A DNA stretch of 64,000 nucleotides, from NCBI RefSeq assembly GCF_003334765.1, contig NZ_QOWT01000010.1; one strand, given 5' to 3'. Position 1 is the stretch's first letter; the number at the start of each line of letters is the position of its first letter. The position numbers and the translations under genes are program-made. The DNA comes from Escherichia coli. GTDB taxonomy: Bacteria > Pseudomonadota > Gammaproteobacteria > Enterobacterales > Enterobacteriaceae. Under the pieces are notes generated by a model, which saw only the letters and a program-made list of their open reading frames with translations, did not search any database and had not been told where the DNA came from. Below are positions 20,934 to 58,864 of this stretch, piece after piece.

Positions 20934-20989
20934 TCATTAATCGGCAACTTTGGGTTGCCGCCAAATTGCTAATATCGAGTACGTTGCTT

Positions 20990-21093
<104 letters not shown>

Positions 21094-21120
21094 TATCACT
21101 TTTGAAATCAAACTTGACGA

Positions 21121-35673: not shown

Positions 35674-36848
35674 TTTGTGTGGTCCATAATATTTTTCATG
35701 GGAGGATAAATTGAGCCAGATGGAATGGCCCAGGGAGTGATTTTGCTTTCACCTACTAATATTCCCTTAGCTATTCGTGATTGCATGTTAGTAAAAACTT
35801 TATGATATGGTTCGTTTTCGATTAATACTAAATTTTCGAAATCATTAGTACCACCATCATCTAGAGATAGTTTATGGTGAACATTATAATTTAGAGGAAC
35901 ATTGCCCTTTCTCATTCTTAAAAGGTCTTCGGCGTTGAATCTTCCAGATGCTTCGGAGGTTTTTGCAAGTTTGATAAGAAAATTTTTTCTTACAGTTTTA
36001 TTAAACTCCTTTCGTAAGTTAGCTAAGTCTTTTGAAGGTCTCTTAATGTATATTATTTCTATTATGTCTATACCATCAAGAAGTTTTTGTTGACCTCTAA
36101 GTTTGCCTAAGTAACTATTTATTTCTGTATATGTATCAACATTAGAACGCTTTGTTAAAAGAATAGATGCTGTTGCTATCGCTATGCCCGCTGTTTTTTC
36201 ATTTAGTATTTGATCATAGCCTTTTATTGCATCTCCACCCAGTTTTTCCGCAGTATCTCTGAATCCTTCAATGTTCCCATTGTATACGCCACCAGCAGCA
36301 AGTAGCCTGCCAATAGCTTTGCTGTTTAACGTTTTGAAACGATTATTTGTTTGGTTTTTTGAATTTGGTAAAAACAAACGGTTATAATTTTCAGGGAGTG
36401 CCAAATAGCTGAACTCGGTATTTGCGATAAGATGTTGACAGAGGATAAATTCATAACTAATAGTTATTGTTTCTGTATCCAGTTGGTTTTCAATGATCTG
36501 GTGATGAATAGCCGATAAAAAAGCGCCTCTTAGTTGTATATAATAATACTTTTCCAATCTACCAAATCTATTTATTCGATAGAAGTCAAATCCCATAAAT
36601 AATTGTTCATTATTGTTAATGGAATTAATAAATAATGGAGTGCTTTTATCAATTAATTTACAAAATGTTATACCATGGAACTGTGAACCAAGCCCCGTAT
36701 TATTAATATTATTTAAGAGTGAGAATGTAAATATTTCATCCTCATGCCCGCTCTGCCAACGATTACCTGTAGACTCAGAAGTCCCACAACCTGCGGAGAT
36801 GCTTCCTTGTTGTTCTCCCGTTACTGTCAGGTAAACAATATTACTCAT
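35670..36848 (-). CDS. yhhZ: Hcp-domain protein fused to a C-terminal HNH-type nuclease-like toxin domain
   Basis: 392 aa. N-terminal about 150 aa has Hcp (T6SS tube) family character (MSNIVYLTVTGEQQGSISAG...HEDEIFTFSL...FDFYRI...). C-terminus carries an HNH-like motif NYNVHHKLSLDDGGTNDFENLVLIENEPYH. AT-rich gene. Confidence 0.85.
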   Translation of the reverse strand: MSNIVYLTVTGEQQGSISAGCGTSESTGNRWQSGHEDEIFTFSLLNNINNTGLGSQFHGITFCKLIDKSTPLFINSINNNEQLFMGFDFYRINRFGRLEKYYYIQLRGAFLSAIHHQIIENQLDTETITISYEFILCQHLIANTEFSYLALPENYNRLFLPNSKNQTNNRFKTLNSKAIGRLLAAGGVYNGNIEGFRDTAEKLGGDAIKGYDQILNEKTAGIAIATASILLTKRSNVDTYTEINSYLGKLRGQQKLLDGIDIIEIIYIKRPSKDLANLRKEFNKTVRKNFLIKLAKTSEASGRFNAEDLLRMRKGNVPLNYNVHHKLSLDDGGTNDFENLVLIENEPYHKVFTNMQSRIAKGILVGESKITPWAIPSGSIYPPMKNIMDHTK

Positions 36849-37084
36849 CCCTGAAAAGTCCTTTTATGGCATGCTATTTTATCAATGGCAATATTATGCT
36901 TGTTAATTGTTATTTATTTACTCCAGGAAATTGTAGGCGTATATATTAAAAAATAAAATATTACACTTTAGGAAGTAATTATGAGTTAAATCTCAATATA
37001 TGTATTGGGCAAATAAATACCTTAAAGGAAGGTATGTCGATTTTGAATGACACCCTTTTTCCATCTCAGAAAAAGGGCACTATC

Positions 37085-37573
37085 TTACTTCACCCGCGCC
37101 ATATAATATGCATCGACATATTCACCATTACGCAATGCGTACTTCTTACCAGTCCCTTCAATTTCAAAGCCGTATTTTTTATAGACCTTAATTGCCGGGG
37201 CGTTATCGACAAACACGGTTAGTTCAATGCGATCTACCCGCAACCAGTTGTCGCACATTTCAATCATCTCTCGCATCAGGGCGCTGGCGACGCCGCGGTT
37301 CTTCCAACGAGAGTCGACACAGATACCAAAATCGGCAACATGACTGCGGCGTGGGCGCTGTTGCACGTCAATGGTGAGATGGCCCACGACGTCTCCATCA
37401 ATACAGGCGACGAGTTGCTTGATGCCGGGACGATCGGCGAGTCGCTCCTGCCACATATGATCGGAAGGATGAGGCACCTGTAGTGTGTTGCAATACACCT
37501 CCGGCTGGGCGTGAATCTGCCTGATGGCCTCGTAATCCCGTGTTTCTGCGTGGCGTATTACTATCTCACTCAT
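37085..37573 (-). CDS. yhhY: GNAT-family N-acetyltransferase
   Basis: Start placed at MSEIVIRHAETRDYEAIRQIHAQ (162 aa); acetyl-CoA-binding motif RWKNRGVASALM. Confidence 0.85.
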   Translation of the reverse strand: MSEIVIRHAETRDYEAIRQIHAQPEVYCNTLQVPHPSDHMWQERLADRPGIKQLVACIDGDVVGHLTIDVQQRPRRSHVADFGICVDSRWKNRGVASALMREMIEMCDNWLRVDRIELTVFVDNAPAIKVYKKYGFEIEGTGKKYALRNGEYVDAYYMARVK

Positions 37574-37673
37574 TCCTTTGTCCTCTTTGGGGTAAATGTC
37601 CCTTTCAACATCATTGACTTTCAAATGCGAGTCAAATGCATTTTTTTGCAAAAAGTGTTGGACAAGTGCGAAT

Positions 37674-37692
37674 GAGAATGATTATTATTGTC
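37674..37692. promoter_or_regulatory. Fur box overlapping the ryhB promoter
   Basis: GAGAATGATTATTATTGTC matches the Fur consensus GATAATGATAATCATTATC at about 15 of 19 positions, immediately upstream of the ryhB 5' end. Confidence 0.8.
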
Positions 37693-37694
37693 TC

Positions 37695-37784
37695 GCGATC
37701 AGGAAGACCCTCGCGGAGAACCTGAAAGCACGACATTGCTCACATTGCTTCCAGTATTACTTAGCCAGCCGGGTGCTGGCTTTT
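37695..37784 (+). ncRNA. ryhB: Iron-responsive small RNA RyhB
   Basis: GCGATCAGGAAGACCCTCGCGGAGAACCTGAAAGCACGACATTGCTCACATTGCTTCCAGTATTACTTAGCCAGCCGGGTGCTGGCTTTT matches RyhB as I recall it; ends in intrinsic terminator AGCCAGC-CGGGT-GCTGGCT plus T9; lies between yhhY and yhhX as in K-12. Confidence 0.93.
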
Positions 37785-37905
37785 TTTTTGATCTTTCGTT
37801 CTCAATTTATCCACGGGAGTGCTTGTGTTCGTTATGCGCACTCCAGTAGGAACCACGTCCGCTTTGCGCTAAGGTGTAAATAACCACCTTAAAAAGGACG
37901 AAATC

Positions 37906-38943
37906 ATGGTCATCAACTGCGCCTTTATTGGCTTCGGCAAAAGCACCACCCGTTACCATCTGCCGTATGTACTTAACCGCAAGGATAGCTGGCATGTCGC
38001 GCATATTTTTCGTCGCCATGCGAAGCCGGAAGAACAGGCTCCCATTTATTCCCATATCCATTTCACCAGCGATCTCGACGAAGTACTAAACGATCCCGAT
38101 GTTAAGCTGGTTGTTGTCTGCACCCACGCGGACAGCCATTTCGAGTACGCGAAACGCGCGCTGGAAGCCGGGAAAAATGTGCTGGTCGAAAAACCGTTCA
38201 CTCCGACACTTGCGCAGGCGAAAGAGCTGTTTGCGTTGGCGAAAAGCAAAGGGCTGACCGTCACGCCGTATCAGAATCGTCGCTTTGACTCCTGCTTCCT
38301 GACAGCGAAAAAAGCGATTGAAAGTGGCAAGTTGGGAGAGATTGTTGAAGTGGAAAGCCATTTTGACTATTACCGCCCGGTGGCAGAAACCAAACCTGGG
38401 CTGCCGCAGGATGGCGCGTTTTATGGCCTTGGTGTGCATACGATGGACCAGATTATTTCTCTGTTCGGTCGCCCGGATCACGTCGCTTATGACATCCGCA
38501 GCCTGCGTAATAAAGCCAATCCTGACGACACCTTTGAAGCGCAACTGTTTTATGGCGACCTGAAAGCCATCGTCAAAACCAGCCATCTGGTGAAAATCGA
38601 TTATCCGAAATTTATCGTTCACGGTAAGAAAGGTTCGTTTATTAAATACGGTATCGACCAGCAGGAAACCAGCCTGAAGGCTAATATTATGCCGGGCGAA
38701 CCGGGATTCGCAGCGGATGATTCGGTCGGTGTGCTGGAGTATGTCAATGACGAGGGCGTGACGGTCAGAGAAGAGATGAAGCCGGAGATGGGCGATTACG
38801 GGCGCGTTTATGATGCGTTGTATCAAACCATCACCCACGGTGCGCCAAATTACGTCAAGGAATCTGAAGTTCTTACCAATCTGGAAATCCTTGAACGCGG
38901 ATTTGAGCAAGCCTCTCCCTCCACAGTAACTCTCGCTAAGTAA
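37906..38943 (+). CDS. yhhX: Gfo/Idh/MocA-family NAD(P)-dependent oxidoreductase
   Basis: 345 aa; N-terminal Rossmann motif (INCAFIGFGKS). Confidence 0.88.
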   Translation: MVINCAFIGFGKSTTRYHLPYVLNRKDSWHVAHIFRRHAKPEEQAPIYSHIHFTSDLDEVLNDPDVKLVVVCTHADSHFEYAKRALEAGKNVLVEKPFTPTLAQAKELFALAKSKGLTVTPYQNRRFDSCFLTAKKAIESGKLGEIVEVESHFDYYRPVAETKPGLPQDGAFYGLGVHTMDQIISLFGRPDHVAYDIRSLRNKANPDDTFEAQLFYGDLKAIVKTSHLVKIDYPKFIVHGKKGSFIKYGIDQQETSLKANIMPGEPGFAADDSVGVLEYVNDEGVTVREEMKPEMGDYGRVYDALYQTITHGAPNYVKESEVLTNLEILERGFEQASPSTVTLAK

Positions 38944-54987: not shown

Positions 54988-55027
54988 ATTAAAAAGTAGG
55001 TTAGATTTTTGACAAAGTGCGCTTTGT

Positions 55028-55131
55028 TCATGCCGGATGCGACGTGAACGTCTTATCTGGCCTACAAGACCATGCAAATTCAATATATTGCATAAACCAC
55101 GTAGGCCTGATAAGCGTAGCGCATCAGGCAG
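55028..55131. repeat. REP/BIME cluster
   Basis: ATGCCGGATGCGACGTGAACGTCTTATCTGGCCTACA and GTAGGCCTGATAAGCGTAGCGCATCAGGCA between yzgL and glpD. Confidence 0.85.
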
Positions 55132-58105: not shown

Positions 58106-58864
58106 ATGAAACAAACACAACGTCACAACGGTATTATCGAACTGGTTAAACAGCAGGGTTATGTCAGTACCGAAGAGCTGGTAGAGCATTTCTCCGTCAG
58201 CCCGCAGACTATTCGCCGCGACCTCAATGAGCTGGCGGAGCAAAACCTGATCCTGCGCCATCATGGCGGTGCGGCGCTGCCTTCCAGTTCGGTTAACACG
58301 CCGTGGCACGATCGCAAGGCCACCCAGACCGAAGAAAAAGAGCGCATCGCCCGCAAAGTGGCGGAGCAAATCCCCAATGGCTCGACGCTGTTTATCGATA
58401 TCGGCACCACGCCGGAAGCGGTAGCGCACGCACTGCTCAATCACAGCAATTTGCGCATTGTCACCAACAATCTCAACGTTGCTAACACGTTGATGGTAAA
58501 AGAAGATTTTCGCATCATTCTCGCCGGTGGCGAATTACGCAGCCGCGATGGCGGGATCATTGGCGAAGCGACGCTCGATTTTATCTCCCAGTTCCGCCTT
58601 GATTTCGGCATTCTGGGGATAAGCGGCATCGATAGCGACGGCTCGCTGCTGGAGTTCGATTACCACGAAGTTCGCACCAAACGCGCCATTATTGAGAACT
58701 CGCGCCACGTTATGCTGGTTGTCGATCACTCGAAATTTGGCCGTAACGCGATGGTCAATATGGGCAGCATCAGCATGGTAGATGCCGTCTACACCGACGC
58801 CCCGCCGCCAGTAAGCGTGATGCAGGTGCTGACGGACCACCATATTCAACTGGAGCTGTGCTGA
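58106..58864 (+). CDS. glpR: DeoR-family glycerol-3-phosphate regulon repressor
   Basis: 252 aa; N-terminal DeoR HTH region. Confidence 0.93.
   Translation: MKQTQRHNGIIELVKQQGYVSTEELVEHFSVSPQTIRRDLNELAEQNLILRHHGGAALPSSSVNTPWHDRKATQTEEKERIARKVAEQIPNGSTLFIDIGTTPEAVAHALLNHSNLRIVTNNLNVANTLMVKEDFRIILAGGELRSRDGGIIGEATLDFISQFRLDFGILGISGIDSDGSLLEFDYHEVRTKRAIIENSRHVMLVVDHSKFGRNAMVNMGSISMVDAVYTDAPPPVSVMQVLTDHHIQLELC

Follow-up and report, generated by a model that had tools for sequence, protein, structure and literature searches.

A canonical ryhB gene with its control elements, and a variable low-GC islet nearby, in an Escherichia coli genome

The ryhB gene and its control elements

The window, by which we mean the whole 64-kb stretch of E. 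coli DNA analyzed here, carries a small RNA gene between yhhY and yhhX. An Rfam scan of the entire window returned RyhB as its sole gathering-level match: RF00057 aligned at 37724–37788 on the + strand with 83.1 bits (gathering cut-off 55, E 3.6e-14), and the alignment covers model positions 1–67 of 67, that is, the full model. The genes and elements of the locus are as follows.

37085..37573, − strand: yhhY, GNAT N-acetyltransferase (NCBIfam NF007527, 373 bits); divergent from ryhB and located between ryhB and the islet
37659..37664, + strand: −35 hexamer TGGACA of the ryhB promoter (consensus scan, 10/12 for the promoter, 18-nt spacer)
37674..37692, no strand assigned: Fur box GACAATAATAATCATTCTC (− strand reading), 16/19 to the consensus; covers the −10 hexamer and ends 3 nt before the transcription start
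37683..37688, + strand: −10 hexamer TATTAT of the ryhB promoter (consensus scan), 6 nt before the annotated 5' end (37695)
37695..37789, + strand: RyhB small RNA, 95 nt by the MG1655 annotation (b4451); RF00057 match, 100% identity to MG1655
37728..37752, + strand: conserved RyhB core GCACGACATTGCTCACATTGCTTCC, RyhB nt 34–58, which holds the sodB-pairing seed (nt 38–46)
37763..37789, + strand: intrinsic terminator and Hfq-binding module, a 7-bp stem (5 GC pairs) with a 5-nt loop followed by a U-run
37906..38943, + strand: yhhX, oxidoreductase (NCBIfam NF007574, 780 bits); follows ryhB and reads in the same direction

Alignment with MG1655 revealed that window positions 37562–37910 match the reference base for base, the whole yhhY–yhhX intergenic region being 100% identical. 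The 95-nt ncRNA ryhB (b4451) is annotated in MG1655 at the corresponding place and maps to window 37695–37789. An earlier note, made from the letters of the window, had described a well-known RyhB sequence as readable between yhhY and yhhX and had proposed aligning it to a reference; both the Rfam match and the identity to the K-12 gene bear this out, and with 100% identity to MG1655 ryhB the terminator and the seed carry no disrupting differences. The span given there, 37669–37790, is essentially right apart from the −35 hexamer, which lies upstream of its start. The gene also occupies the orthologous position, divergent from yhhY and upstream of yhhX and yhhW. A RyhB paralogue or a decayed copy was considered and rejected on the grounds of complete identity to b4451 and of this position. 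K-12 RyhB (SraI or IS176, b4451, RF00057) and the window gene thus share promoter, Fur box, RNA and terminator sequence as well as the flanking yhhY and yhhX; nothing differs inside the gene, and the differences from MG1655 fall only elsewhere in the 64 kb. Read as it stands, the sequence offers no argument against ryhB identity.

Across the full 64 kb, 14 substitutions and one indel separate the window from MG1655 (99.97–99.98% identical), none of these 15 differences lying between 31450 and 39014. The window lacks IS1E as well. By this alignment, the window is a very close K-12 relative, not MG1655 itself. One extra base was noted at position 58256, inside a region annotated as the glpR pseudogene in MG1655, and the glpR frameshift may accordingly be absent from the window. 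Secondary BLAST matches also picked out three intergenic repeats of about 110–118 bp, roughly 84% alike, at 20988–21104, 26813–26929 and 55024–55130, which in K-12 lie near ugpB/livF, panZ/livJ and glpD/yzgL; they probably belong to a known family of dispersed intergenic repeats.

Upstream of the RNA, the consensus scan found exactly one promoter-like site in 37400–38000, that of ryhB; the K-12 locus, searched for an exact TTGACA-N-TATAAT, gave no match. A search of the 64 kb with the Fur consensus GATAATGATAATCATTATC, allowing at most 3 mismatches, likewise returned one match, at 37674–37692, where 0.02 would be expected by chance. The same site in K-12 scores 25.2 bits, has been placed at −15 of ryhB and is gel-shifted by Fur (PMC2189734). 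The scan therefore agrees with the earlier proposal of a Fur box over the promoter: the overlap is predicted from sequence, with binding known from the identical K-12 site, and the ryhB promoter is, by its consensus elements, of the sigma-70 type with its −10 hexamer covered by the Fur box.

At the 3' end, the predicted Rho-independent terminator comprises a stem at 37763–37781 and a long U tail (T-run to 37789), coincides with the Rfam model's terminal helix and agrees with the terminator described in the earlier note. Frequent read-through of the ryhB terminator has been reported (PMC4509938); such read-through would head towards yhhX. A hairpin-like site lies 3' of the terminator in the yhhX leader (37812–37827), and a substitution/indel polymorphism between E. 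coli lineages falls within it, at 37813/37817.

Folding of the single RyhB sequence was no more stable than that of shuffled sequences (z = −0.67), so thermodynamics alone gives RyhB identity no support. The exact 25-mer of the core was found in at least 120 DNA stretches from Enterobacterales, Vibrionaceae and Aeromonadaceae genomes. The core is complementary to the translation-initiation region of sodB, RyhB nt 38–46 pairing contiguously over 9 bp with positions −4 to +5 of MG1655 sodB, which we take to be the pairing described in the literature. The energy of the duplex itself is not distinctive: at −19.3 kcal/mol, it is equalled or bettered by 27% of 62 background start regions. Since sodB, a true target, is unexceptional by this measure, duplex energies are a weak discriminator here.

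The iron-sparing mechanism is established for the RyhB family, reportedly by Masse and Gottesman (2002) and by later studies. In iron-replete cells, Fe2+-Fur sits on its box and blocks RNA polymerase at ryhB. When iron is scarce, the RNA of about 90 nt is made and bound by Hfq via the terminator and U-tail; its single-stranded core then pairs with mRNAs for dispensable iron proteins (sodB, sdhCDAB, acnB, ftnA and others) where their translation begins, blocking translation and triggering RNase E-dependent decay, so that iron is spared. This outline draws also on PMC2189734 and PMC4509938. For the window, induction by iron starvation, Hfq dependence and RNase E-coupled target decay are carried over by analogy from published work on the identical K-12 gene, and expression, Fur repression and Hfq binding are likewise expected because of the literature on the identical K-12 sequence.

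Conservation of ryhB in E. coli and related bacteria

We searched complete E. coli genomes with two queries. A 351-bp segment around RyhB matched 5,425 of 5,426 genomes, every time between annotated yhhY and yhhX, and a 141-bp query comprising promoter and RNA was likewise present in 5,425/5,426, of which 5,367 showed no more than one difference. In four fetched genomes whose ggt-yhhY junction is empty, partial or alternative, the segment 37628–37791 (promoter, Fur box, RNA and terminator) is identical to the window, whereas the flanks of the same genomes are only 93.5–98.9% identical. In the RefSeq/PGAP records of most E. coli genomes ryhB carries no feature at all ("none" in the listed genomes); the curated MG1655 record does annotate it.

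Among the variants examined, a T-to-C change 3 nt past the U-run occurs in Nissle, in 23AR0151 and in one empty-junction genome, and another is a U-run one base shorter. A 9-bp duplication (ACATTGCTC) inside the core and seed was found in 1 of the 5,426 genomes, the sputum isolate E. coli 23AR0151. The RyhB core already forms an imperfect tandem of 9 nt (ACATTGCTC ACATTGCTT), and so the duplication looks like replication slippage; it may also be an assembly error. The Nissle assembly marks yhhY as a pseudogene carrying an internal stop, and the adjacent ryhB is intact there.

Beyond E. coli, the order ggt-yhhY-ryhB-(yhhX)-yhhW is kept in many Enterobacterales. The RyhB RNAs of this order, among them Salmonella RyhB-1 (RfrA), Klebsiella RyhB and Yersinia RyhB1/2, share the exact 25-nt core, and the divergent yhhY-ryhB arrangement recurs in many genera. 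A published listing puts Salmonella RyhB-1 between yhhX and yhhY (PMC3384567), and for Klebsiella RyhB Fur repression has been demonstrated, with an overall identity of only 72.4% (PMC3423075). Unlike in E. coli, the loci of Yersinia, Serratia and Pantoea lack yhhX, and yhhW directly follows ryhB; several genera also differ in having a second RyhB copy elsewhere. We observed the exact core at two or three separate loci in Photorhabdus, Yersinia, Serratia and Pantoea, and two core copies in tandem, about 300 bp apart, in Salinivibrio.

The low-GC islet between ggt and yhhY

On the far side of yhhY, the window carries a short block of genes of atypical composition.

34440..37084, − strand: low-GC variable islet, about 2.6 kb and about 32% GC, flanked by the 3' ends of ggt and yhhY
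34445–34729, − strand: yrhB, islet gene
34929–35084, − strand: yrhD, islet gene
35179–35673, − strand: yrhA (family NF038335, 122 bits)
35670–36848, − strand: yhhZ, 392 aa, Hcp-HNH fusion

The ggt gene is convergent with the islet genes and its stop codon lies at 34407. The islet protein is K-12 YhhZ, of the "evolved Hcp" or Hcp-ET1 type, with an N-terminal Hcp domain, a degenerate C-terminal HNH and an immunity-like gene next to it. The Hcp (TssD) domain is clear: residues 1–147 match TIGR03344 with 118 bits (cut-off 58.9), and PF05638 is matched at 2.5e-11. The HNH match is weak, with PF01844 covering residues 322–343 only (i-E 0.013), which sets the window protein apart from Hcp-ET1, an Hcp fused to an HNH DNase. 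Published work counts YhhZ among the evolved Hcp proteins and the His-Me finger nucleases (PMC2907695, PMC5714182), its class being His-Me finger group 32 (PMC5714182), and a review describes STEC Hcp-ET1 as a T6SS-delivered DNase (PMC6730261). The yrhA gene overlaps the yhhZ stop by 4 bp, as is usual for effector-immunity pairs. "Toxin islet" is a fair label for this segment with its putative toxin. K-12 strains are reported to lack T6SS genes (PMC6730261), and none is annotated in the MG1655 region corresponding to the window; the YhhZ/YrhA module may therefore be an orphan.

The islet is also present in MG1655, with an IS1 in yrhA. In the window there is no IS1E: at 35284–35292 the two blocks of the K-12 alignment share 9 bp, which is the target-site duplication. 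The yrhA gene is accordingly an unbroken ORF of 164 aa and not a split pseudogene.

Several lines of evidence bear on the origin of the islet. GC content is 0.29–0.35 across about 34600–37000, against 0.47–0.59 in the flanks. The full islet, counted as present where at least 80% of the 34300–37750 segment is carried, occurs in about 3,758 of 5,426 complete E. coli genomes (about 69%). The ggt-yhhY junction takes at least four states in E. coli, namely full (yhhZ-yrhA-yrhD-yrhB), empty, yrhB only and an unrelated gene for a 303-aa DUF4225 protein, with rough shares of 68%, 17%, 5% and 5%, respectively, as read from position in an evenly spaced ranking. In two fetched genomes the empty junction is clean, a spacer of about 60 bp between ggt and yhhY. 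Homology between the window and genomes with islet-free or alternative junctions breaks at 34407–34443 on the left and at 37083–37087 on the right, the latter being the yhhY stop codon. At 26 loci of other Enterobacterales, including E. albertii, the islet is absent from the junction, where the gap measures 40–375 bp, and in the loci fetched from other species none of the islet genes has a homologue at E ≤ 1e-3, which argues that the empty state is ancestral. Composition, polymorphism with clean empty sites and absence from sister taxa together indicate that yhhZ-yrhA-yrhD-yrhB was acquired horizontally and forms a polymorphic islet, inserted where the 3' ends of ggt and yhhY converge, in line with the description of the toxin islet as acquired in the earlier note.

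Signatures of mobility were sought at the islet and not found: repeats at the flanks amount to AT-rich chance matches, none of the ORFs encodes an integrase, there is no tRNA, and the empty-site spacers have only the ggt terminator hairpin in common with the islet ends, with no att-like repeats. This lack of integrase, flanking direct repeats and tRNA would suit a segment already present in the ancestor of E. coli and repeatedly lost since, a history to which the majority status of the full islet (about 69% of complete genomes) and the deletion-like appearance of intermediate states such as yrhB only would also conform. We consider such a history unlikely, given an islet GC of about 32% against about 50–58% in the flanks, and given that all 26 of the other-species loci with ggt and yhhY, E. 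albertii among them, lack islet homologues. These islet-free loci argue that the segment entered after E. coli diverged from these species, with which later losses are compatible. Either way, the choice affects only the word "acquired" and leaves RyhB identity as it is; acquisition of the islet remains our preferred reading.

Distance and possible links between the islet and ryhB

The edge of the islet at 37084 lies 611 bp from the RyhB start at 37695, and the entire yhhY gene is placed between them. The distance of about 600 bp proposed at the outset was accurate; to call RyhB "directly beside" the islet overstates the case, as a whole gene intervenes. Transcription of the islet genes runs away from ryhB, which therefore cannot receive read-through from them. 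RyhB was characterized in K-12 strains, and K-12 carries the islet, so that the juxtaposition is already present in the reference genome. With RyhB and its promoter identical in empty, partial and alternative junctions, and found in 5,425 of the 5,426 genomes, ryhB is unaffected by the islet at the level of sequence, and the claim that the islet sits there without disturbing the RNA holds at that level.

We weighed whether the neighborhood might nonetheless be functional. The genes yhhY, yhhZ, yrhA, yrhD and yrhB stand in series on the − strand, with the islet immediately downstream of yhhY; yhhY appears in a list of Fur-regulon genes (PMC2710865), and the Fur box lies about 100–120 bp upstream of its start codon. 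Partial co-transcription of yhhZ/yrhA with yhhY could then place the toxin/immunity module under a Fur-regulated promoter and make it iron-responsive. In the 236-bp yhhY–yhhZ spacer on the − strand we found neither a terminator-like site nor a consensus-level promoter, as this arrangement would suggest, and the scan counts there and across the islet were at the level of shuffled sequence and hence uninformative. However, the consensus scan also gave no yhhY promoter on the − strand, so that overlap of such a promoter with the Fur box is unproven, and a hairpin at 37049–37077, just past the yhhY stop, could serve as a terminator. Literature searches, on yhhZ with Hcp and on yhhY with Fur and iron, gave no paper that connects yhhZ with Fur or iron; they yielded only the listing of yhhY under Fur in the regulon table (PMC2710865). 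The islet is moreover missing from about 30% of E. coli genomes, and the control region is unchanged in them. A functional juxtaposition of this kind therefore strikes us as quite improbable, and its specific form, in which a Fur-repressed yhhY promoter within the divergent control region common to ryhB would be read through into the islet and so render the toxin module responsive to iron starvation, as very improbable.

Control in the other direction, with RyhB acting post-transcriptionally on the mRNA of yhhZ, yrhA, yrhD or yrhB as a regulator next to its target, we regard as barely credible. RyhB has many targets, and cis-neighboring targets are known for some small RNAs, a general consideration that lends this pairing no specific support. 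Using ViennaRNA duplexfold, we obtained −14.6, −7.3, −15.8 and −6.4 kcal/mol for the RyhB central region against positions −60 to +30 of yhhZ, yrhA, yrhD and yrhB, respectively, and all four duplexes are at or below the median of the 62 background start regions of the window; the test is a weak one, sodB itself reaching only −19.3 kcal/mol. RyhB also predates the islet and has a far wider distribution.

We infer instead that the proximity of islet and ryhB is incidental. We put at roughly 97% the probability that positions 37659–37789 are the canonical ryhB of E. coli together with its control elements, unaffected at the sequence level by a nearby islet whose proximity is incidental. The locus is already known, a textbook ryhB in its reference-genome context. 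Beyond annotation its significance is small: an intact canonical ryhB is confirmed here, and the gene is left unannotated in most E. coli RefSeq/PGAP records. More broadly, the ggt-yhhY junction is a multi-state variable site beside a strictly conserved small RNA gene. One possible link between the two would be read-through into the islet from a Fur-controlled yhhY; this, if true, would make an interbacterial toxin module responsive to iron starvation in the approximately 69% of E. coli genomes that carry the islet.
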